Shown in pieces: positions 1 through 18,579 of a stretch of DNA of 20,000 bases. The first letter of the stretch is position 1; each line of letters begins with the position of its first letter. The position numbers were made by a program, and so were the translations under genes. The notes beneath the pieces are model-generated. The model had not been told where the DNA came from. It did no database searches and was given only the letters and a program-made list of their open reading frames with translations. Where the stretch lies: IMG/VR virus record IMGVR_UViG_3300045969_000082; one strand, 5' to 3'. This stretch comes from an uncultured virus (IMG/VR IMGVR_UViG_3300045969_000082) (Duplodnaviria; Heunggongvirae; Uroviricota; Caudoviricetes).

Positions 1-1370
1 TGAGGTGATCCGAACCGAACTTTCACCGCGCCGATCTCTGCGATGTCGACTCCATCGTTCCGCACCGCCGACGGAAAAGCCTTCTCGATCTTCTTCCAAT
101 CCGAGTCGCTACTGGCGATCGCCTTCCTCTCCTCGAGGAATTTCAGGAAGCGATAGAGGTAGAAGATCGCATCGAACGGCGTCTTCGCAGGATCCCCGCC
201 AAACAGGTCCATCGAGATCGGCCGCGGATTGTCGCGCTTCATGCCGAAGCTGTTGCGCTGGTTGAGCACAAGCCATGCGGCATCCGTCATTTCGGCTCCG
301 GCCTTCAGGATTTGTCCGATACCCTTGGCCTTGGTGCCCTCGTCAGCCCGACGATCTTCGGGCTTCACCACGCCGATGTGGTCAACCACCACGAACGGCA
401 CCTTGTCGTTGCCGCGCCGTTTCACGAAGGTCCGCGCCAGCCCGACGAGTTGCGGCGCTGATTGATCGGTGCATTTGATGACCTCGAACGGGACCGAGCC
501 GATCCAGCGGGCGAAGCTCATGCAAGTCTCGAACTCCTTCTCCGACAGCAGCTTTGCGTCCCGCTGCCGACGAGCCTCGATCTCGTTCTCCTGCGCCACC
601 ATCTGACGGATCACCTGATCCGACGATTGGTCAAAGGAGAGGAAGCAGACCGGATGCCCCTTCTTCAGGGCATGCAGGATCAACTGGATTGTAAGGGAGG
701 TCTTGCCCTCGCCCGACGAAGACAGCAGCCCGTAGAGGTTTCCCGCCTCGAAGCATGGTTCCGAAATCACCTCAGCGATTTCGTCGAGAGCGATAGGCAC
801 GCCCCTGACTTCGCCTCGCTGGTAGGACATCGACAGGCTGTCGAGGTAGGACTGCCCGGCGTTCTTGATCGGCGAGGATTTCAGCGCATCGGCGCGGATC
901 GCAGCCATGCGCTCCTCGATCGGCTCGAACGCCTTCAGCGGATTCTCGCCCGGCGCGAGGTTGAAGTAGGTGTCGACGCCATCCTGAAGCGCGCCGATTG
1001 CTTGCCGCGCGACCCACGCATCGAAAATCGCTGCGGCATAATCCGGCGCATTCACCACCGTCACCGCATGCGTGCAGAGATGGGCGAGATAGCCAGAAAC
1101 CGTCGCCTCCTGCCCCTCGATCTTCAGACCTTCGACCTTGGCAGGCAGGCTGTTCTTCAGCGTCACCGGGTTTGCGCCGCGGCCGTTCGCAAGTGACTGG
1201 CCGATCACCTCATAGACGCGCTGGTGCAGCGGTTCGTAGAAGTGCTGCGGTTCCAGCAGACGGTTCACCACATCGAAAGCGGCGTTATTCAGGAGGATCG
1301 CGCCGAGAAGCGCCTGTTCCGCGGGAACGTTCTCGGGAACGGCACGGACGGATGGATCGTGCGCGTTCAT
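1..1370 (-). CDS. dnaB: Phage DnaB-like replicative helicase (3' end beyond the window; absent from the ORF track)
   Basis: Hand translation from ATG 1370 gives the DnaB N-terminus MNAHDPSVRAVPENVPAEQALLGAILLNN...PQHFYEPLHQRVYEVI. Also Walker A LLSSSGEGKT, Walker B FVVVDHIG, LVLNQRN, RPISMDLFGG...DAIFYLYR and AEIGAVKVRFG, all in the same frame. Confidence 0.9.
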   Translation of the reverse strand, partial: MNAHDPSVRAVPENVPAEQALLGAILLNNAAFDVVNRLLEPQHFYEPLHQRVYEVIGQSLANGRGANPVTLKNSLPAKVEGLKIEGQEATVSGYLAHLCTHAVTVVNAPDYAAAIFDAWVARQAIGALQDGVDTYFNLAPGENPLKAFEPIEERMAAIRADALKSSPIKNAGQSYLDSLSMSYQRGEVRGVPIALDEIAEVISEPCFEAGNLYGLLSSSGEGKTSLTIQLILHALKKGHPVCFLSFDQSSDQVIRQMVAQENEIEARRQRDAKLLSEKEFETCMSFARWIGSVPFEVIKCTDQSAPQLVGLARTFVKRRGNDKVPFVVVDHIGVVKPEDRRADEGTKAKGIGQILKAGAEMTDAAWLVLNQRNSFGMKRDNPRPISMDLFGGDPAKTPFDAIFYLYRFLKFLEERKAIASSDSDWKKIEKAFPSAVRNDGVDIAEIGAVKVRFGSP

Positions 1371-1915
1371 GCCACCACTCCCGCCGCCATCAGGCGGAAC
1401 TGGTCGCACTTCTTCGCCGTCCAGTAGGCGATAATGCAGGCGTCGCGAGCGTCTTGGTTGGTGGCGACGATCTTCAACCGCTCACACATTTGCTTCGCGC
1501 GCTCCTTCGACGAGCCCTTGATGTCCTTGTCGATCACCGACAGCCACGACTGCGGCCTCACCTCGACGCAGGGTATGTTTTGGCCGGTGACGCAGATCTG
1601 CGCCGCGCCGGCGAGCCGGTTGAGCTGCATCACCGTGCCGGGATTGATTGTGGAGACTTCCTCCTCCTCGCCGAACATCGTCTTCGACTTCTTGGTGAAG
1701 GTCGGAACGATCGAAAGAGGCGCTTCGATGGCACAGAAATCCGGCCGATGCTCGCGGATCAGCTTTGGCAGCTTCCTTCGCATGTCGGCCACCTTCTCGA
1801 AGGCGTTATCCCCGATGAACTGGAGAGCGCCAGAAAGCATCGACGACGGGTCGCGATCGGCATCCCAAACCGCATATCCGCACTTCGTTGCCACGTCCAA
1901 GGCGAGGATCTTCAT
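1367..1915 (-). CDS. RuvC-like Holliday junction resolvase
   Basis: MKILALDVATKCGYAVW, PDFCAIEAP and NQDARDA supply the RNase H-fold acidic residues. Start moved to ATG 1915, which forms an ATGA overlap with the upstream stop. Confidence 0.8.
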   Translation of the reverse strand: MKILALDVATKCGYAVWDADRDPSSMLSGALQFIGDNAFEKVADMRRKLPKLIREHRPDFCAIEAPLSIVPTFTKKSKTMFGEEEEVSTINPGTVMQLNRLAGAAQICVTGQNIPCVEVRPQSWLSVIDKDIKGSSKERAKQMCERLKIVATNQDARDACIIAYWTAKKCDQFRLMAAGVVA

Positions 1916-6913: not shown

Positions 6914-7244
6914 GGTGGTGCCCCATCCTGAAGGCGTAGCTGGACATTCCGGGTGGGCAGACGCGGCTAATGGTGCGCGTGAGATTCTGACGCGCACGCG
7001 GTTCGCTTCTCCGAAAAAAGTCTCGAAGGAGCCGGGCATGCAGGGTGCGGCTCACCCGACCGCGCAACTCCACGTACTCGTTGTAGTCGATGGCGCCGCG
7101 CATCCACATCGAGCGCAGAGTCGCGCGCTCCTTCCTCACCGCAGCATAGAGCTTGGCATGCGCGTCCGTGCAGCGGGCCTCATCTTCCAGCCTCTGGAGG
7201 AACCCAGATGTGCGGAGAGCTTGATAGATTGGGTTGCGGATCAT
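6885..7244 (-). CDS. Basic hypothetical protein downstream of cro
   Basis: ATGA-coupled to the cro stop; its 3' end overlaps the convergent gene. Confidence 0.55.
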   Translation of the reverse strand: MIRNPIYQALRTSGFLQRLEDEARCTDAHAKLYAAVRKERATLRSMWMRGAIDYNEYVELRGRVSRTLHARLLRDFFRRSEPRARQNLTRTISRVCPPGMSSYAFRMGHHLKSRRRDLA

Positions 7245-7495
7245 GCCGCGACACCTTCAGCAGCGCGGGCACGGGACGCTTCGTCCGGCGTCGGGACCGG
7301 GATGCCGTTCTCCTGTGCAATGCGGAGGATGTCGTGAGCATCGCGAGCCTTGAGGGCCTGATCCTTCAGCGCCTCCATCCGAAAGATGCGGACCTGATAG
7401 AGGAACAACCGCTTCGCGAACTCGCCCTGCGTTTCCCCGAGCGCTCGCCGGATGCACCAGAGCTGATTGCCGGTCAAGCTTGGGCCCGCACTCAT
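7241..7495 (-). CDS. cro: Cro-like XRE HTH regulator
   Basis: LTGNQLWCIRRALGETQGEFAKRL XRE signature, AGGAG RBS, divergent from cI. Confidence 0.8.
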   Translation of the reverse strand: MSAGPSLTGNQLWCIRRALGETQGEFAKRLFLYQVRIFRMEALKDQALKARDAHDILRIAQENGIPVPTPDEASRARAAEGVAA

Positions 7496-7505
7496 GTATT
7501 GATCT

Positions 7506-7566
7506 CCTACAAATCGTATTAGACGAATACGCAAAGATTGCGCCCCATGTCAATACCAATCGTATT
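7506..7566. promoter_or_regulatory. OR-like operator cluster with leftward PR-like promoter
   Basis: AATAC-CAATC-GTATT (7552-7566), CCTAC-AAATC-GTATT (7506-7520) and a half-matching site at 7526-7540. Minus-strand TTGACA at 7548-7553. Confidence 0.75.
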
Positions 7567-7591
7567 TGAAAATATGCGACGCTCGGCGACC

Positions 7592-8308
7592 ATGAAAAAT
7601 GACGCGCCGAATCCCGACGAGAACAACCAGCACACCCGTCTTCGAGCCGCCCGTGAGAAGCTGAGGATTTCAGCCTCGGAAGCCGCACGCTCCATGGGGA
7701 TGAACATCTCCACCTACACGCATCACGAGAACGGGACGCGGACCTATGGGGAGGAAGAGGCTCGGAAGTACGCCAGGCGCCTGAAGACCACGCCGGAATA
7801 TCTTCTGCTTGGCATTACCGGCGGTTCACCAAAGGGAATCGTCAAGGAAATCGACTCTCGGGCCGGCGCTGGCGGCGGCGGTGTCGTCGATCTCGTGAAC
7901 GTCACAGATCAGAACGGGAATATAGTTTCGGCCGAGGTCATCAAGGATCACTGGCAGATACCCGAGTCGTTCCTTCGCGGCGAACTCCGGATGGAGGCGA
8001 ACCGCGCCCTCATCATCGAGGTCTCCGGTGATTCCGGCTACGATCCGAGCAATCCGAACGCGCCAGGTTCCTTGATGCCGGGAGACCGGGTGATCGTCGA
8101 TGCGAGAGATACGAAGCCTTCGCCGCCAGGGCCGTTCCTCGTCTACGACGGCGTCGGGTTCGTCGTGAAGCTTTGCGAGCCGGTCTTCGGATCTGATCCG
8201 CCGCGGATCAGACTGTCGAGCCGCAATCCGACCTATGAACCTTACGACGTGAGTGCTGAAGAAGGGCACATCGTCGGAAGGGTTCGAGGGCGAATCACGG
8301 CGATGTAG
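7592..8308 (+). CDS. cI: CI-like repressor (XRE HTH plus S24 autopeptidase)
   Basis: RLRAAREKLRISASEAARSMGMNISTYTHHENGTR HTH; Ala-Gly site RAGAG; VSGDS catalytic Ser; VVK catalytic Lys; IVGRV ending. Confidence 0.93.
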   Translation: MKNDAPNPDENNQHTRLRAAREKLRISASEAARSMGMNISTYTHHENGTRTYGEEEARKYARRLKTTPEYLLLGITGGSPKGIVKEIDSRAGAGGGGVVDLVNVTDQNGNIVSAEVIKDHWQIPESFLRGELRMEANRALIIEVSGDSGYDPSNPNAPGSLMPGDRVIVDARDTKPSPPGPFLVYDGVGFVVKLCEPVFGSDPPRIRLSSRNPTYEPYDVSAEEGHIVGRVRGRITAM

Positions 8309-8316
8309 CCGTAACT

Positions 8317-8328
8317 GGGGGGGGGGGG
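8317..8328 (+). repeat. G12 homopolymer tract
   Basis: Twelve consecutive G between the cI stop and the ATG at 8335. Confidence 0.9.
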
Positions 8329-8334
8329 ACTCGC

Positions 8335-8661
8335 ATGACGAGGATAGTGGTCGAGACCAAAGTGAAGTTCACTGCTGCGGGAGGCATCGGGGCTTTGCTA
8401 TTCGTCGCTGCGCCCGCCGTTTTGGCGTTCATGGCCCTGGACGATATCCGGTATGGATATGGAAGAATGACAAGCTTCGCGGCGGCTGGCTACTTCATCT
8501 TCGCAGGCATAGCCGCTTCTCTTGGACTCGTGCTTCTTATGATTGGGCGGGAATACACCCACGAGGTGCAAATCCTGAAACCTGGTGAGACCGCGCCAAA
8601 GGATAATGTCCCACCTTTCGGCGGCACCGAAGCCGAACGACGCAACCTTGGCCTGAAGTGA
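8335..8661 (+). CDS. Two-TM membrane protein downstream of cI
   Basis: 108 aa with two hydrophobic segments; noticeably more AT-rich than the core phage genes. Confidence 0.75.
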   Translation: MTRIVVETKVKFTAAGGIGALLFVAAPAVLAFMALDDIRYGYGRMTSFAAAGYFIFAGIAASLGLVLLMIGREYTHEVQILKPGETAPKDNVPPFGGTEAERRNLGLK

Positions 8662-8665
8662 CGCC

Positions 8666-8890
8666 ATGACCCTCGACCAGCTCGAGACCGCCCTCCATGA
8701 CATCCGCTGGACGCCAGACATTCTGGCCCGCGCGCTGGAGTGCGACGTCTCGCTCGTTCACGCATGGCTCGACGGAAATGCCGAGATCCCCATGAAGGTC
8801 GGCGTCTGGATCAAGGTCATCGCCGAGCACCATCAGGCTTTTGAGCAGACCAGGCCGAAGACGGTGAAGGGGAAGAAGTTTGTCACGTGA
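8666..8890 (+). CDS. Small Cro/CI-type HTH protein
   Basis: MTLDQLETALHDIRWTPDILARALECDVSLVHAWLDGNAEIP fits the XRE-like pattern. Confidence 0.75.
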   Translation: MTLDQLETALHDIRWTPDILARALECDVSLVHAWLDGNAEIPMKVGVWIKVIAEHHQAFEQTRPKTVKGKKFVT

Positions 8891-8902
8891 AAGGAGAGAA
8901 AA

Positions 8903-9028
8903 ATGATGTGCATGGGCGGGGAAAAGGACAGAGAGGACAACGACCCACCTCCTCCTCCGCAGGATTGGGATAGCCGCAAGAGCGAAGACCAGTACGAGAA
9001 GCGCGATTCACGCGAAAAGGGCAACTAG
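8903..9028 (+). CDS. Putative 41-aa charged poly-proline peptide
   Basis: AAGGAG RBS; MMCMGGEKDREDNDPPPPPQDWDSRKSEDQYEKRDSREKGN; below the ORF-track cutoff. Confidence 0.5.
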   Translation: MMCMGGEKDREDNDPPPPPQDWDSRKSEDQYEKRDSREKGN

Positions 9029-9499
9029 CCCCGCAAGAACCGCCGCCGCTGGCGTCCACATACCGACTTGGACAGCGGTATGGAGCGCCGCGGCAGTCTT
9101 CTCATTCAGATCACGATTGACATCCTGCTTCTGATGAAGCTCCGAGAGATAGGCGCCAACGGCCTTGTCGATCGTGACACGCTCATCCATTGCCCATAGC
9201 CAGAACTCCGCGCCTCGGCCAGGGAGATTGATCGTCGCCCGAGACATCGCTTTGGTGCAGAAGTAGGCGCCGATCGCCAACATCAACGCAGATGTCGACA
9301 TAGACCAGCGCGAAAACTGAAGAAGTTCATCTGAACGAAAGAACCCGGCCGTAGCTGTCACGGCCGCAGCGACGCCGATGGTGACATATATCCGAAACAC
9401 CGCCATCGCCTTCTGGTCGGTGAAGAGCACAAGGTTGACCAGAGCCTGATGACGCGCCCTTGCGTCGTCCAGTGCGATTTTGAGATCGTCGGGCTTCAT
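9008..9499 (-). CDS. Three-TM membrane protein with a DUF5706/PycTM-like layout
   Basis: N-terminal helix ending TDQKA, two TM segments, a soluble loop, the helix NRDLNEKTAAAL, then a third TM. GAGGT RBS before ATG 9499. Confidence 0.7.
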   Translation of the reverse strand: MKPDDLKIALDDARARHQALVNLVLFTDQKAMAVFRIYVTIGVAAAVTATAGFFRSDELLQFSRWSMSTSALMLAIGAYFCTKAMSRATINLPGRGAEFWLWAMDERVTIDKAVGAYLSELHQKQDVNRDLNEKTAAALHTAVQVGMWTPAAAVLAGLVALFA

Positions 9500-9524
9500 G
9501 GCTACCTCTCGCGTAGACGCCAAG

Positions 9525-9595
9525 TTCTGAAACGTCTCAGAATCTTGAACTTTGAATCTTCTATATCAAGAGCTTGATTCTGAGAGGTCTCAGAA
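9525..9595. repeat. Two related 18-bp palindromes flanking an AT-rich core with three GANTC sites
   Basis: TTCTGAAACGTCTCAGAA (9525-9542), TTCTGAGAGGTCTCAGAA (9578-9595) and ATCAAGAGCTTGAT (9565-9578). GANTC at 9540, 9554 and 9576. Confidence 0.8.
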
Positions 9596-9599
9596 CCGC

Positions 9600-10075
9600 C
9601 TCTGTTCTCTATCCCGCAAGGGATAGGGGCTTAGGAAACGGCGCAGTACACCCTTGCACGCCGGAAGCGATCCGACGCCAAGGGTACTGCATAGAGCCAA
9701 GGACAGAGCCTTGAGGTTCCCGTATGCATCCCCGCATCGCGCCATATGACGGCGCATAGCCCCTGCGGATCATGGTCCGTTTCTATTGGCCGGGGTGGCC
9801 TCACGCGCCGGGTTCGGACTCCCGTGGTGGCATGCGCGCCCTTCTGGTTGTTTATCAACGGCTGACCAGCCAGCCCAGCGGTTCCCATCTTTCCACCGAT
9901 TCCCTCCGGGCAGCATCCAAACCGCAAACCCACTCCCGAAGGAAACTGGCCTGAAAATCAACGTTTGGCTTGAGAAATCGAGTGGGACGCTATATGTTGT
10001 GCCCACTGGATATTCCCGGTCGCCAAACCAGTTTCTCATCCAGTCATGCCCCGATCGCTTGCCGGCGATGCGGGG
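9600..10075 (-). ncRNA. Putative long structured RNA; ends approximate
   Basis: Nested stems GAAACGG/CCGTTTC, GCAGTAC/GTACTGC, CCTTG/CAAGG, CCGCA/TGCGG and GCGCC/GGCGC. Several mismatches become G-U pairs only on the minus strand. Candidate -35 TTGACG at 10105-10110 on the minus strand. Confidence 0.45.
9970..10002 (+). promoter_or_regulatory. Sigma70-type promoter overlapped by an NrdR-box-like site
   Basis: TTGAGA (9970-9975)-N17-TATGTT (9993-9998). ACGCTATATGTTGTGC (9987-10002) matches acaCwAtATaTwGtgt at 13 of 16 positions. Confidence 0.5.
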
Positions 10076-10085
10076 CTTTCTTTTT
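10005..10085 (+). ncRNA. Putative ~80-nt two-hairpin small (antisense) RNA
   Basis: Lies between the promoter above and the terminator; first stem ACTGGAT (10005-10011)/ATCCAGT (10038-10044). Confidence 0.45.
10048..10085 (+). terminator. Rho-independent terminator
   Basis: GCCCCG-ATCGC...GCGAT-G-CGGGGC followed by TTTCTTTTT. Confidence 0.85.
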
Positions 10086-10126
10086 GCGCCCGATCGGCCG
10101 CCCTCGTCAAGTATGCGTATCAATTT

Positions 10127-10167
10127 CATACTTTTCGTATTGACACAACAAATACGGCTCGTATTAT
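10127..10167 (+). promoter_or_regulatory. OL-like operators with PL-like promoter
   Basis: CATAC-TTTTC-GTATT (10127-10141) and AATAC-GGCTC-GTATT (10151-10165) overlap TTGACA (10140-10145)-N16-TATTAT (10162-10167). Confidence 0.8.
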
Positions 10168-10173
10168 CGCCCT

Positions 10174-10654
10174 CGTTCACCCCAGCCACGAAGAAGCGCA
10201 CCGCGCCGATCTGTCTGGGATCAATCGAGGAGCAAGAGATGCTTTCCGTCAGCACTGGAGGTCGAGATGTAAGCCGCAGCGCAGAGCGCGCGCCCTTTGG
10301 GCTGGATCAGTTCGATCGCCTGGCTGGAGGCGTAATTCCAGCCCCCAATTCTTCAAACCCCGACCCCCGAACCTTGGCTGGCGCCGACGGCCGCCGGAGC
10401 ACACCAAGCCTGCTTGCTGTGGGGGCAAAAAGCGATGGCGCTAGTCCGCTGTCGTCGGTCGGGGCCGCTTCCGAGCGGAACGTGGGTGTCCACGAAAGCA
10501 GGCAAGCCGTCCCCTATTCCCATTCGCAGGTTCCGTCCCCCCGGCCTGCGGATAAGCCGGAGGCGGATACTCTCCTCCCATCCGTCTCCGGCGCCTATTC
10601 CCCTTGGCAGGTCCAGCGCCCGCACCTTGAGCCTATGGCGAGGAGGGCGAGCGA
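10174..10654 (+). ncRNA. Structured leader of the rightward early operon
   Basis: At least eight stems, with G-U pairs favouring the plus strand, including a multibranch domain closed by GCCTGCTT/AAGCAGGC (10408-10503). Confidence 0.5.
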
Positions 10655-10658
10655 ATGA
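10239..10658 (+). CDS. Doubtful Ser/Pro/Ala-rich ORF running through the structured leader
   Basis: GAGGAG RBS and an ATGA overlap with the next gene, but non-protein-like composition. Confidence 0.3.
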   Translation: MLSVSTGGRDVSRSAERAPFGLDQFDRLAGGVIPAPNSSNPDPRTLAGADGRRSTPSLLAVGAKSDGASPLSSVGAASERNVGVHESRQAVPYSHSQVPSPRPADKPEADTLLPSVSGAYSPWQVQRPHLEPMARRASE

Positions 10659-10888
10659 GCGTCCGTGTCGTCAACGACTTCGTGCCCCATTGGGACAACA
10701 ACCATGAGGGCTACCGCGCGATCTTCAATGCGGCGCTGACCGGCATCTGCGCGAACCCGAATTTCTTCGGCCCAATCCTTCAAGGAAGCCCAGAGGCGGC
10801 AGTCAATTTCGCCAATGAGGTCACGCTCGCTGCGATCTACGGCGACAAGTACGTGCCGTCCCACGAGCGCGATGGAGAAAAATCATGA
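10655..10888 (+). CDS. Hypothetical phage protein
   Basis: 77 aa, GAGGAGG RBS, coupled to the next gene. Confidence 0.75.
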   Translation: MSVRVVNDFVPHWDNNHEGYRAIFNAALTGICANPNFFGPILQGSPEAAVNFANEVTLAAIYGDKYVPSHERDGEKS

Positions 10889-11139
10889 ACGCGATGGACA
10901 TCACGCGCGACGGACTTGTCGCGGCCCTGACGCCTGCGCCGACGCTGGAAGAGCAGCTTGAGCGCGCCGAGCGCGACCTGGTCTGCGCCCAGATGATCGA
11001 CTCGACGGCGAGGATGATCGCCGAGACCGAGGAGTGCGAGCGGCGTATCGGCTCGATCAAGCGCCAGATCGCCGAGCGTGACGAGCGCGAGCATGTCGAG
11101 AACGCCGTTGCGGCGCTGGGTGATGACCATGCCCGCTAA
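10885..11139 (+). CDS. Hypothetical coiled-coil protein
   Basis: 84 aa, GGAG RBS, ATGA overlap. Confidence 0.75.
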   Translation: MNAMDITRDGLVAALTPAPTLEEQLERAERDLVCAQMIDSTARMIAETEECERRIGSIKRQIAERDEREHVENAVAALGDDHAR

Positions 11140-11326
11140 GCATCAGCCCACGTTCTACCTCACCGAGGAAGCGGCGCAGAAGCGCATCACGCGCCTCGTC
11201 GAGCGGATCGCCAAGGAAGGCCGCGCCAGCGCCGACTACCGTCGCGTTCCGCCCAGCATCCGCAAGATGGTCGACGCCCTGATCGACGGCCGCTTGTTCT
11301 TCGCAGATCAGATGGAGGCGGCGTAG
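11123..11326 (+). CDS. Hypothetical protein
   Basis: Start at 11123 or 11129; stop directly abuts the next ATG. Confidence 0.65.
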   Translation: MTMPAKHQPTFYLTEEAAQKRITRLVERIAKEGRASADYRRVPPSIRKMVDALIDGRLFFADQMEAA

Positions 11327-11683
11327 ATGGCCTCGCTTCCGAAAATCGATCCAGAGTTCATCGTCATCTGCCAGTCGGCGTGGTGCAACGAGAGTGGGAT
11401 CGGCATCCACTACGGCTGGAACGGCGAACGGTTCAACAACCGAAACGACGCCATCAAGCACGGCTGGGAAGTTCGCGGTTCCGACGACTTCAACATCGCG
11501 CAGACCTACGGTGACGACCTCATCTGGTTCGGCTGGATGGACCAGCGCATCGACGAGGATGAGGACACGATGCGCGAGATCGCGGAAGCGGTTGGACTGA
11601 CTTTCGATCCCCGCTGGTATCGCCTCGAACTGTCGAGGGCCGATGGGCGAGTGATCGGATTGCGCAGCGAGGCCCGGCCATGA
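11327..11683 (+). CDS. Hypothetical protein
   Basis: 118 aa, GGAGG RBS, globular-looking with many W/D/G residues. Confidence 0.8.
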   Translation: MASLPKIDPEFIVICQSAWCNESGIGIHYGWNGERFNNRNDAIKHGWEVRGSDDFNIAQTYGDDLIWFGWMDQRIDEDEDTMREIAEAVGLTFDPRWYRLELSRADGRVIGLRSEARP

Positions 11684-11901
11684 ACCGCCTCATCATCCAG
11701 GTCTTCCGCTGCGGCGAATGGCGGAACGTCACCACCATCCCGCTGGAGATCGGCCACAACAGCCGCGACGCCGAAACCAAGTACGCCCGCGCCTATCGCG
11801 AGGCGATGCTGATGCTGTCGCGCTGGCGGGGATATTTCGACGAGCCGCTGCGCATTGCCGAGCCGACGACTACCGGTGGGTATGTGGAGGCGCGGCCGTG
11901 A
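11680..11901 (+). CDS. Hypothetical protein
   Basis: 73 aa, coupled on both sides. Confidence 0.7.
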   Translation: MNRLIIQVFRCGEWRNVTTIPLEIGHNSRDAETKYARAYREAMLMLSRWRGYFDEPLRIAEPTTTGGYVEARP

Positions 11902-12173
11902 AGTCCGACCTCCATTGGCCCGACGCTGGCTGCTGCTGGCCCGGCTATCCCGGTGGCTGCGTTTGCCCGCCCGACGAAAAGGCCCTCAGGGCTTGGAAGC
12001 GTGGCGAGATCATCACTCCTATGAACGCCGACCAGCGCGAGTTCTGCCTAGCTGAAATCGGGCAGGTCGAGGGCTACACCCGCGCCGACCATGCCGAGGA
12101 CAACGACGCTGACCTTGCAAGTGCTGTCCTCGATGCGTGGACCGCCTACGCGCGCGACAAGGGGCTGATCTGA
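11898..12173 (+). CDS. Hypothetical protein with Cys-rich N-terminus
   Basis: GTG start in a GTGA overlap, GGAGG RBS, motif GCCWPGYPGGCVCP. Confidence 0.7.
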   Translation: MKSDLHWPDAGCCWPGYPGGCVCPPDEKALRAWKRGEIITPMNADQREFCLAEIGQVEGYTRADHAEDNDADLASAVLDAWTAYARDKGLI

Positions 12174-17294: not shown

Positions 17295-17473
17295 GCAGGG
17301 CGCTCGCGCTTACTCAGCGACAGGTGAGAGCCTTGTGCGAGGGCGCGAAAAAGGCCGGCTATGCACCAATCGCCCAGTTTGGCAATGTGCTGGTGCGCCT
17401 TGTCCCCGAAGAACACGCTATTCCTGACCAGCCATCACCGCGCGTTGACGATGGGGAGGACTTTGATCTTTGA
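17291..17473 (+). CDS. Putative excisionase / recombination directionality factor
   Basis: 60 aa directly upstream of the integrase; LTQRQVRALCEGAKKAG. Function inferred mainly from position. Confidence 0.55.
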   Translation: MSRALALTQRQVRALCEGAKKAGYAPIAQFGNVLVRLVPEEHAIPDQPSPRVDDGEDFDL

Positions 17474-17481
17474 TGGAGGGC

Positions 17482-18579
17482 ATGCCGCGCAAACGCCCCG
17501 CCTTTGTCATTCGCGAAAAGAATCGCCACGGAAACTGGCGATGGTATTTCCGCAAGAAGGGGACGCCGCGCGTCCGGCTCCCCGATGAATATGGGACGGA
17601 AGAGTTCTGGGCAGCTTACAACGCGGCGCTGACGGGGCAGGCAGTCGAAAAGCCGAGGCCGGCTTCATCGGGGACGCTGGAATGGCTGGTCAAGCGGTAT
17701 ATGGCCAGCGCACACTACGTCTGCCTTGCCGAGACCACCCAAAGAAGCCGGGGCAGCTTCTATCGGGGCGTCTGCAAGAAGTCCGGCCACATCGATTTTC
17801 GCAGGATCACCAAAAAGAAAATTCAGGAAGCCATGGACGCGAGGGCCAAGACCCCTTACGCGGCCAACAATTTCCTCGTCGCGATGTCTGTCCTGTTCGA
17901 TTGGGCGGTGAAGAATGAATTTGTCACCGACAATCCATGCCAGAAAGTTACGCCGATCAAGGTGAAATCGGCCGGCTACCACACATGGACAATGGAAGAA
18001 GTTGAGCAATACCGAGCGCGCCATCCTCTGGGCACGCGGCAACGCCTCGCGGTCGATCTCCTGCTGTTCACGGGCTTGCGCATCTCCGATGCTATTCTCG
18101 CCGGCCGCCAGCATGTGCGCGATGGCGTCCTGACGATCACGACCGGGAAGACAGGCACTGTCGTCTCCGTCCCGATCTTCCCGGAGTTGCGGCGGTCAAT
18201 AGATGCGACCAAGACTGGAACGCTGACGTTTCTCGTTGGGGCAAGAGGCCGCCCGTTCACGTCATCATTCACATTCGGGGCATGGTTCAGGAAGGCTTGT
18301 GATGACGCCGGACTCACTCACTGCACGGCTCATGGGCTACGAAAGGCCGGCGCAACTATCGCTGCCAACTCCGGCGCGACAGTCCACGAACTCATGGCGA
18401 TGTTCGGCTGGTCGCGCTCGTCTATGGCTGAAATCTACACCAAGAAGGCCGACCGGGCACGGCTCGCGCGAGCAGCCGCCGAACGGATTGCGAACGCCCA
18501 AGTCTCCAACCCTGCGCCGGGGTGCGGCCCAACCGAAGAAAATAGCGGTGGAAACAACGGCTTAAAAAGCGCTACATAG
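17482..18579 (+). CDS. int: Tyrosine recombinase / phage integrase
   Basis: N-terminal arm-binding-like REKNRHGNWRWYFR; catalytic TGLRISD, GKTG, HGLRK, FGW and EIYT; GGAGG RBS before ATG 17482. Confidence 0.95.
   Translation: MPRKRPAFVIREKNRHGNWRWYFRKKGTPRVRLPDEYGTEEFWAAYNAALTGQAVEKPRPASSGTLEWLVKRYMASAHYVCLAETTQRSRGSFYRGVCKKSGHIDFRRITKKKIQEAMDARAKTPYAANNFLVAMSVLFDWAVKNEFVTDNPCQKVTPIKVKSAGYHTWTMEEVEQYRARHPLGTRQRLAVDLLLFTGLRISDAILAGRQHVRDGVLTITTGKTGTVVSVPIFPELRRSIDATKTGTLTFLVGARGRPFTSSFTFGAWFRKACDDAGLTHCTAHGLRKAGATIAANSGATVHELMAMFGWSRSSMAEIYTKKADRARLARAAAERIANAQVSNPAPGCGPTEENSGGNNGLKSAT

Follow-up and report, generated by a model that had tools for sequence, protein, structure and literature searches.

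The subject of this analysis is the spacer at positions 9500-10240 of a 20,000-nucleotide (nt) stretch of DNA from an uncultured virus (IMG/VR record IMGVR_UViG_3300045969_000082), and "the window" stands here for that whole stretch. The window is a lambdoid prophage of Rhizobiaceae, and 9500-10240 is its interval between the repressor gene cI and the promoter PL. The interval is 100% identical to an IMG/VR provirus (G001), and identical DNA is present in ant-metagenome runs. An earlier note, made from the sequence alone, described the region as an antisense RNA and a long RNA laid out like the RNA I and RNA II of ColE1. Most of what that note observed is borne out, but its ColE1 interpretation is in error. 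The spacer would instead be a mosaic of separable modules and not one RNA switch, a reading of the immunity region that, taken as a whole, is given a probability of about 0.6.

The features of the interval are listed below from left to right, with transcript ends and functions as predicted.

9008-9499, minus strand: cargo gene for a protein with three transmembrane segments (3-TM), 163 amino acids (aa), in family phrog_25606 (PHROG E 9.9e-26), which has no assigned function
9525-9542 and 9578-9595: two operator-like palindromes, TTCTGA-N6-TCAGAA, 53 bp apart around an AT-rich stretch
9618-9921, either strand: Element E, about 300 nt, conserved, structured and non-coding; it spans the multi-stem domain of the earlier note and most of its G-rich stretch
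9970-9998, plus strand: promoter of the candidate small RNA (sRNA), TTGAGA-N17-TATGTT, from the promoter scan
10003-10088, plus strand: candidate sRNA of about 80 nt (~86 nt), a 5' hairpin with a large internal loop followed by an intrinsic terminator
10048-10085, plus strand: the intrinsic terminator, a 10-bp stem with one bulge (10048-10076), then CTTTCTTTTT
10105-10110: CGTCAA (TTGACG on the minus strand), part of a conserved GTCAA(G/T) located some 30 nt upstream of the -35 of PL
10117-10167, plus strand: OL operators and the PL promoter TTGACA-N16-TATTAT (promoter 10140-10167), the top-scoring site of the 20 kb (11 of 12 positions matched)
10172-10654, plus strand: PL leader, about 480 nt, a structured conserved RNA that contains the open reading frame (ORF) 10239-10658

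OL, PL and the cargo slot

The region around 10140-10167 is assigned to OL and PL because it holds the best promoter of the window and because its repeats recur in the spacer between cI and cro. Repeats of the AATAC-N5-GTATT type are common to the cI/cro spacer (7506-7566) and 10117-10165, and the repeat families D2, D4, I6 and I9 link 7496-7568 with the same stretch, so that operators are shared between OR and OL. Three related loci (L015, L013 and L017), whose DNA was fetched via the alignment of homologues of ORF 10239-10658, cannot be aligned with the window or with each other over 10090-10170, and each has its own inverted repeats around TTGAC. The same is seen in three further loci (L060-L062). 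A variable 10090-10170 between conserved flanks is therefore the picture expected of immunity-specific operators. As in a lambda-type OL/PL, a strong promoter is found together with operators of the cI/cro type, and the operator DNA differs between heteroimmune relatives. The earlier placing of 9500-10140 as the cI-PL interval is thus borne out by gene content, the best promoter and the shared operator repeats, and the cI operators with PL (10117-10167) would make up one module of the mosaic.

Just to the left of the operators, GTCAA(G/T) at 10105-10111 is present in six of the seven loci examined (the window, L015, L013, L017, L060 and L062), though the DNA on either side of it varies; GTCAA is invariant in the alignment of the close relatives (A2) and also found in L060 and L062. 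The earlier note had read this site as the -35 of a leftward promoter. The TTGACG hexamer is there at 10105-10110, but the -10 that would go with it (GCAAAA after N17, or CAAAAA) fails the promoter scan.

To the left of these elements lies DNA that the relatives exchange. L015, L013 and L017 align with the window at 8665-8879 (88-89% identity) and then again further right, where the match resumes at 9944/9945 (L015, L013) or 10171 (L017) and runs to 10519-10607. Between the two matching stretches each carries 0.8-2.5 kb of unrelated genes. Because both flanks match and the DNA between them differs, 8891-9944 is taken as a cargo slot. Located between a 74-aa gene and the sRNA/PL block, it looks like a hot spot for morons or defence genes. 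The corresponding DNA holds membrane-protein ORFs in one relative (L015:1899-2707) and four or five genes, one of them with a helix-turn-helix (HTH), in another (L013:219-2687).

The earlier note saw no credible protein in the spacer, and this holds: the codon-position GC signal is absent throughout 9500-10238, and its three long ORFs have no Pfam or PHROG match. Searches with the DNA of 9500-10240 found no similarity in phage and plasmid records, and the spacer gave only matches of 31-40 nt, a size expected by chance, in 401 genomes of the order of genome G002. The spacer is missing from the loci of 3-TM protein relatives (L002-L004) and from those of relatives of the gene at 10655 (L005-L007).

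The cargo gene of the window is the leftward 3-TM gene. PADLOC found no match for six neighbouring proteins, the 3-TM protein included. Its homologues in Ensifer and Rhizobium (59-63% aa identity) are preceded by an HTH gene and not by this spacer; for example, a small gene of the XRE type (L002:2769-3004, and likewise in L003) precedes the homologue with an ATGA overlap. The copy in the window has lost this partner or never had it, and palindromic operators stand in its place. A tblastx search for a remnant of the partner gene gave short, chance-level matches only (E 0.005 or weaker). Also, by sequence reading only, a small rightward ORF of about 41 codons (8904-9026, preceded by AAGGAGAG) overruns the 3' end of the convergent 3-TM gene.

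The palindrome TTCTGA-N6-TCAGAA has two exact matches, and three sites at two mismatches or fewer compared with 0.48 expected. The two sites form repeat family D1 and inverted repeat I3, are distinct from the cI operators, and account for the AT-rich palindromes of the earlier note (9524-9596). They are presumed to be the control region of the 3-TM gene, and the two operators with their leftward cargo gene would be the leftmost module.

Element E and the small RNA

Element E came to light through a spurious minus-strand ORF (9631-9933). Used as a protein query, it found four metagenomic relatives that match 9506-9947 in shifting frames, and the stretch is therefore conserved without coding for a protein. 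Among 400 genomes of Rhizobiaceae, the family of G002, that were scored in a DNA search (G687 was not scored), four carry Element E (9628-9874) at 71-77% identity (L060-L063); nhmmer matches some 300 nt in these homologues with E 1e-60 to 1e-75. Two stretches of the element, used as exact patterns, had 0 matches in IMG/VR.

The earlier note had proposed a nested multi-stem domain here. In the window, 9626-9770 folds at -58.0 kcal/mol on the plus strand (z -2.5) and -67.2 kcal/mol on the minus strand (z -2.9), and on each strand two of 200 shuffled sequences fold as well, a modest advantage. With RNAalifold, 21 of 72 pairs on the plus strand and 22 of 57 on the minus strand have compensatory changes. 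A set of 46 pairs was then examined, made up of 38 common to both strand predictions and eight from the minus strand (seven of an inner hairpin and one adjacent). Across the homologues, 82.7% of the cells are paired compared to 73.2% in shuffled alignments and 33-43% in slid controls, and 16 pairs are changed on both sides compared with 8.1 expected; none of 500 shuffles reaches the observed values. Conserved, covarying stems in homologues, the test that the earlier note had set for its RNA, are thus found, and the evidence that the helices of Element E covary can be called moderate. Given the homologues and the covarying helices, the multi-stem domain is real and conserved, although the outer helix seen in the window (GGGGCU/AGCCCC) is lost in the homologues. 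Sliding fold z-scores are about 0 across 9680-9979, a measure that cannot separate real from unreal structure here since it is also about 0 for the covarying domain at 10350-10525.

Its setting suggests that Element E may belong to a leftward transcript. In L060, L061 and L062 the element lies 130-200 nt to the left of a TTGACG/TTGTCA promoter, oriented as in the window. Inverted repeats particular to each phage lie on both sides of these PL-like promoters. In L062 the genes cro and cI are found left of the element, and the L061 leader carries the 5' motifs of the PL leader of the window. In four of the five loci (the window, L061, L062 and L063), the start of a leftward ORF that has a Shine-Dalgarno-like sequence lies 56-118 nt past the left end of the element, and these cargo ORFs differ from locus to locus, none of those in the relatives being a homologue of the 3-TM gene. 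The RNAalifold consensus energy is also better on the minus strand (-47.1 compared with -37.4 kcal/mol). The PL context and the leftward ORFs beyond the left end are the reasons to favour a structured 5' leader or regulatory RNA, transcribed leftward, for a cargo gene expressed in the lysogen. This reading is a tentative one that falls a little short of an even chance. The suggestion in the earlier note of an antisense-controlled leader for the 3-TM gene gains some support as far as the leader goes, from the leftward ORFs at four of five loci, and none for the antisense control.

Several observations count against a leftward Element E. The promoter scan finds no leftward promoter for it (no minus-strand site in 8800-10900). 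There is no credible leftward ORF beside it in L060, and those in L061-L063 are mechanical calls of 38-106 aa. A plus-strand terminator follows it in the window and in L063. The invariant long-range helix GGAAAC (9635)/GUUUCU (9780) pairs better on the plus strand. The covariation rests on five sequences, in which the 38 shared pairs hold 10 G-U pairs on the minus strand and nine on the plus strand; the claim that mismatches read as G-U mainly on the minus strand was not upheld.

The main rival is a rightward RNA, either an independent non-coding RNA or the 3'-terminal part of the immunity transcript, ending in the window at the terminator at 10085. It would explain the plus-strand terminators after the element in the window (10048-10085) and L063, the GGAAAC/GUUUCU helix, in which a plus-strand G-U reads as A-C on the minus strand, and several other helices with U-G on the plus strand only. 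The orientation relative to PL, constant in four of the five loci, suits it as well. However, no plus-strand promoter is recognisable to the left of the element in any locus, L060-L062 are without an evident terminator between the element and PL, helices 2 and 6 gain G-U on the minus strand only, and the consensus fold is about 10 kcal/mol more stable on the minus strand. A rightward transcript is therefore considered unlikely, roughly half as credible as a leftward one. Less probable still is that Element E acts as DNA, as a protein-binding platform near OL or a recombination site for cargo exchange, with its helices as incidental palindromes. It does adjoin a cargo slot of variable content, and its strand signal is symmetric (10 and nine G-U), but protein sites would not be expected to show compensatory changes in 16 of 46 pairs or pairing over 30-50 nt, and L013, L015 and L017 swap cargo without it. 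A leftward-transcribed Element E thus stays the preferred reading, and this folded element, which goes together with PL-type promoters in a number of Rhizobiaceae prophages, would be the second module.

The third module would be the sRNA gene. The rightward promoter TTGAGA-N17-TATGTT of the earlier note is present and is kept as TTGAGA-N17-TATCTT in two relatives (L015 and L013), and the short RNA that the note drew from a hairpin and terminator also stands: 10003-10088 folds at -30.2 kcal/mol (z -2.7). In alignment A2, 9945-10047 is near-identical in the window, L015 and L013, with the body (10000-10047) fully identical and diverging flanks; the block 9944-10092 is confined, among the related loci, to these three. 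The terminator has the makings of an intrinsic (Rho-independent) one as predicted from its sequence, that is, a G+C-rich hairpin followed by a U-run, CTTTCTTTTT. Its stem is compensatory in L013 (GATCGC/GCGAT becomes GGCCGT/ACGGT), and its tail, GGGGCTTTCTTTTTGCGCC, is invariant in four of four loci, including L017, whose upstream part differs and is without the sRNA body. We read 10003-10088 as a real sRNA gene on the basis of the conserved body and the compensatory terminator stem. Two results weigh against this. The promoter scores 9 of 12, and the four promoter-like sites in the 20 kb compare with 3.6 expected, so that the score alone is no better than chance. Also, in a search for a trans target within the window the best duplex (-40.2 kcal/mol) falls inside the range of 15 shuffled sRNAs (-34.4 to -41.6). 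The terminator probably serves a second purpose, namely to insulate PL from rightward read-through from the cI and cargo side, as tImm does in lambda.

Element E and the sRNA are the parts from which the earlier note had built a Rep-independent origin of the ColE1 type in 9500-10110, with a leftward G-rich primer RNA controlled by a short rightward counter-transcript. As in ColE1, a short terminated RNA lies beside a long folding region that is G-rich on the opposite strand: the minus strand of 9860-9945 is 42% G (of its 86 bases, 36 are C and 17 are G on the plus strand), as the note had said, and the short RNA sits where a leftward transcript from TTGACG would start. It also fits that no O-like initiator was recognised between cro and DnaB, where, however, several unannotated ORFs could be the initiator. 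Unlike in ColE1, the long RNA has no promoter (the candidate leftward -10 is GCAAAA), the G-rich tract is without a fold signal, and the sRNA is one internal-loop hairpin and a terminator, not three kissing stem-loops. The parts are also not conserved together, since L013 and L015 carry the sRNA block but no Element E, L060-L063 carry Element E but no sRNA block, and the two meet in the window only; coupling of the RNA I/RNA II type is therefore not conserved. Finally, the provirus that holds L013 (G794) has the replication module (DnaB 78% aa identity with the window, methylase 91% in DNA; RuvC and methylase DNA 80-91%; other early-right genes in common) without 8891-9944, which is therefore not the origin of the family. 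With no primer promoter, no co-conserved antisense RNA and an element that does not travel with the replicon, the ColE1-type origin was rejected as hardly credible.

The PL leader and its folded domain

To the right of PL the conserved DNA would be transcribed as a long leader, the last module, with a 5' hairpin, a unit of Shine-Dalgarno sequence, start and stop, a covarying domain and, in some phages, a module of 81 nt. Its features are as follows.

10239-10658, plus strand: 139-codon ORF with 25 homologues in public protein collections and no Pfam or PHROG match
10257-10272, plus strand: GGAGG-N5-ATG-TAA (consecutive Shine-Dalgarno, start and stop), in a different frame from the long ORF; read from the sequences
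10350-10525, plus strand: structured RNA domain inside the PL leader, 176 nt, at least six helices, described by covariance model R1
10520-10600, plus strand: two-hairpin module of 81 nt with C-rich loops, CCGUCCCCCC in the first and CUCUCCUCCCA in the second

Conservation resumes at about 10172, the expected start of the PL transcript, and includes runs of about 30 invariant bases. Near the 5' end, the hairpins at 10181-10219 and 10323-10346 show compensatory changes, the second with G-U on the plus strand. The GGAGG-N5-ATG-TAA unit is kept in the window, L015, L013 and L017 and has the form GGAGG-N6-ATG-TGA in L061. The window holds no second copy of the 5' leader motif that could serve as an analogue of nutR, and a degenerate pattern, poorly designed, also found no match over the loci. 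Downstream of a copy of this motif in L022 (1930-2300, in G484) lies a gene in which a 21-nt unit (GGCCATGCCTCGGCGGCGGGC-like) is repeated in tandem many times, so that its protein would be repetitive.

A strong case for a folded RNA is the domain at 10350-10525. Compensatory changes affect 19 of 40 pairs in six sequences (an alignment based on MAFFT and independent of model R1). When 165 kb of related DNA was searched with model R1 (cmsearch), eight members scored 63-193 bits. In the alignment fitted to the model, 90.8% of cells are paired compared with 72.2% in shuffled alignments and 30-42% in slid controls, and 23 pairs are changed on both sides compared with 12.5 in shuffles, a level reached by none of 500. 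The comparisons strongly support an RNA domain. It stands alone in other prophage-like loci, also in the middle of operons. In L021 it has a stop in the frame used in the window, and in L056 it has stops in all frames and lies outside any ORF, after the stop codon of a gene. In L035 the domain (1420-1558, minus strand) abuts a tRNA-Met(CAT) (1556-1633, minus strand) and lies directly behind it, where tRNA processing would free the domain RNA. No new member was found in six genomes of the genus of G484.

The long ORF across the leader has to be weighed against this. One could consider 10239-10658 as the first gene of the PL operon, coding for a fast-evolving, disordered phage protein, with the RNA pairing secondary. 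The ORF is intact in four of four close DNA homologues, with its ATG, its Shine-Dalgarno sequence and its ATGA overlap with the next gene kept, and its indels (114, 81 and 6 nt) preserve the frame. The 25 database homologues point the same way. Substitutions by codon position are 36/36/48, with 19 synonymous and 53 non-synonymous; of the control genes, one is dominated by third positions (3/6/22) and another, the neighbouring 10885-11139, is as flat (16/12/19). Because a real gene looks equally flat, the codon-position test on the leader ORF is not decisive. These points tell against a leader conserved for its RNA. On the other side, the invariant runs of about 30 bases include third codon positions despite an overall divergence of 20-30%, and covariation in 10350-10525 is strong. 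The RNA domain tolerates an in-frame stop (L021) or stops in all frames (L056) and can follow a tRNA (L035), while L061 keeps the 5' motifs of the leader with an ORF of only five codons; nor does the protein match any Pfam or PHROG family. A protein as the main product is thus improbable. The ORF is probably translated, with its nucleotide sequence and fold conserved rather than the protein. Ribosomes would traverse it, and the constraint would lie on the RNA.

The 81-nt module at the end of the domain is present in the window and L013 and exactly absent from L015 and L017. It is bounded by direct repeats, CCTATTCC, at 10512-10520 and 10593-10601, and its presence and absence looks like insertion or deletion between short repeats. 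Its C-rich loops make it resemble an anti-Shine-Dalgarno sequence. The cuckoo RNA family (ar14, CcsR1-4 and NfeR1) is described as two to four adjacent hairpins, each with CCUCCUCCC in its loop (PMC4615179). The module is similar in that it has two adjacent hairpins with C-rich loops, comes from an alphaproteobacterial setting and has CUCCUCCC in the second loop. It differs in that the first loop is CCGUCCCCCC and the second is one mismatch from the motif, neither carrying the exact CCUCCUCCC, and in that it sits in a phage leader and ORF and is not a free sRNA. Below the Rfam thresholds it scores 28.7 bits with ar14 (RF02344; cut-off 58.8) and 28.6 with CcsR1 (RF02791; cut-off 65.3), about half of what is needed in each case. 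With the exact loop motif absent and both gathering cut-offs missed, membership in the cuckoo family was rejected. A literature search found no paper that connects cuckoo RNAs with prophages.

Known systems and the prophage setting

The immunity region of lambda has the order PRM-cI-rexAB-tImm-OL/PL-nutL-N, and tImm shields PL from read-through. The window is similar in that the repressor operon and PL point in the same direction, operators are shared between OR and OL, accessory cargo separates cI from PL, OL/PL is immediately preceded by a terminator and a conserved RNA signal comes early in the PL transcript. It differs in that a separate sRNA gene uses the terminator, a folded element of 300 nt adjoins, and the cargo gene points away from PL. 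Also, the PL leader is about 480 nt long, structured and with an ORF, and no N-like protein or boxA/boxB was recognised.

The put RNAs of HK022 are cis-acting antitermination RNAs of about 70 nt with two stem-loops, found after both PL and PR. Like put, the leader domain is a conserved folded RNA near the start of the PL transcript, here in a lambdoid prophage without a recognisable N gene. By description it is set apart from put, being 176 nt long with at least six helices and found also in mid-operon and after a tRNA. Model R1 has one match in the 20-kb window, which covers only part of the PR operon. Another comparison is with DicF, a base-pairing RNA of 53 nt. DicF of the Qin prophage is reported to be processed from the early, repressor-controlled transcript of the dicBF operon (bioRxiv 10.1101/2023.04.14.536235). 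By description, the likeness is that of a repressor-controlled early prophage operon whose 5' part has functions at the RNA level together with small ORFs.

Rfam 15 gave 0 matches at the gathering score for Element E, the sRNA or the PL-leader domain in the window or in 11 related loci, so that the comparison with known families proposed in the earlier note came out negative. Scans by E-value gave chance-level matches only, apart from the cuckoo-like one, and literature searches, judged by titles and the beginnings of abstracts, gave no paper pointing to these RNA elements. The control centre of this prophage is, by its sequence, the site of two covariation-supported RNA elements without a described family, which makes it more interesting than a plain spacer. 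More speculatively, and with somewhat less assurance than the leftward reading of Element E carries, PL could be bracketed by two structured RNA families absent from Rfam. Element E would be a portable leader that gates or drives lysogen cargo genes beside OL. The PL-leader domain would be a mobile RNA module that acts on the transcription or translation machinery or as a counter-defence decoy, with the long ORF open only for the passage of ribosomes. If this is true, the 176-nt domain could act in protein-independent antitermination, in protecting the long leader from Rho, or as such a decoy, and an antiterminator or anti-defence RNA would be a new class of mechanism for these phages. Being short and backed by covariation, both elements are directly testable.

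To our knowledge, what is known of phage immunity regions comes almost wholly from enterobacterial phages. Alphaproteobacterial prophages may show another solution, in which independently recombining RNA modules surround operators that are swapped between heteroimmune phages. Also, a family of "hypothetical proteins" in public collections would be at least partly an RNA element, which bears on the calling of ORFs and on the discovery of RNA classes.

The genes on which the placing of the interval rests, in addition to those named above, are as follows.

3-1409, minus strand: DnaB, from Pfam/PHROG gene content, at the far left of the map
between DnaB and the cro-like gene: a RuvC-like nuclease, then a methylase (gene content)
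7241-7534, minus strand: cro-like gene (gene content)
7538-8308, plus strand: cI, with HTH and S24 domains (gene content), followed by two small plus-strand genes
8666-8890: conserved gene for 74 aa, at the left edge of the cargo slot
downstream of 10140, plus strand: rightward operon with exonuclease, RecT, YbcO nuclease and integrase (17470-18579), then host genes

Contigs from four RNA libraries cover 7000-12000 at a depth that is low and flat throughout, with gaps that differ between runs. The flat depth therefore allows no inference on transcripts, strands or ends, which is a point against the transcripts proposed here, and a gap at 9386-9832 in one run is not evidence. As mechanically called, the cro-like and cI ORFs are 3 bp apart (in 7496-7570). 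The true starts probably lie further in (MKND... for cI, for example) because the operator repeats fall inside the first codons. In the related provirus G794, the DnaB homologue (G794:C1:18684-20078, L025) is recorded as having one in-frame TGA.

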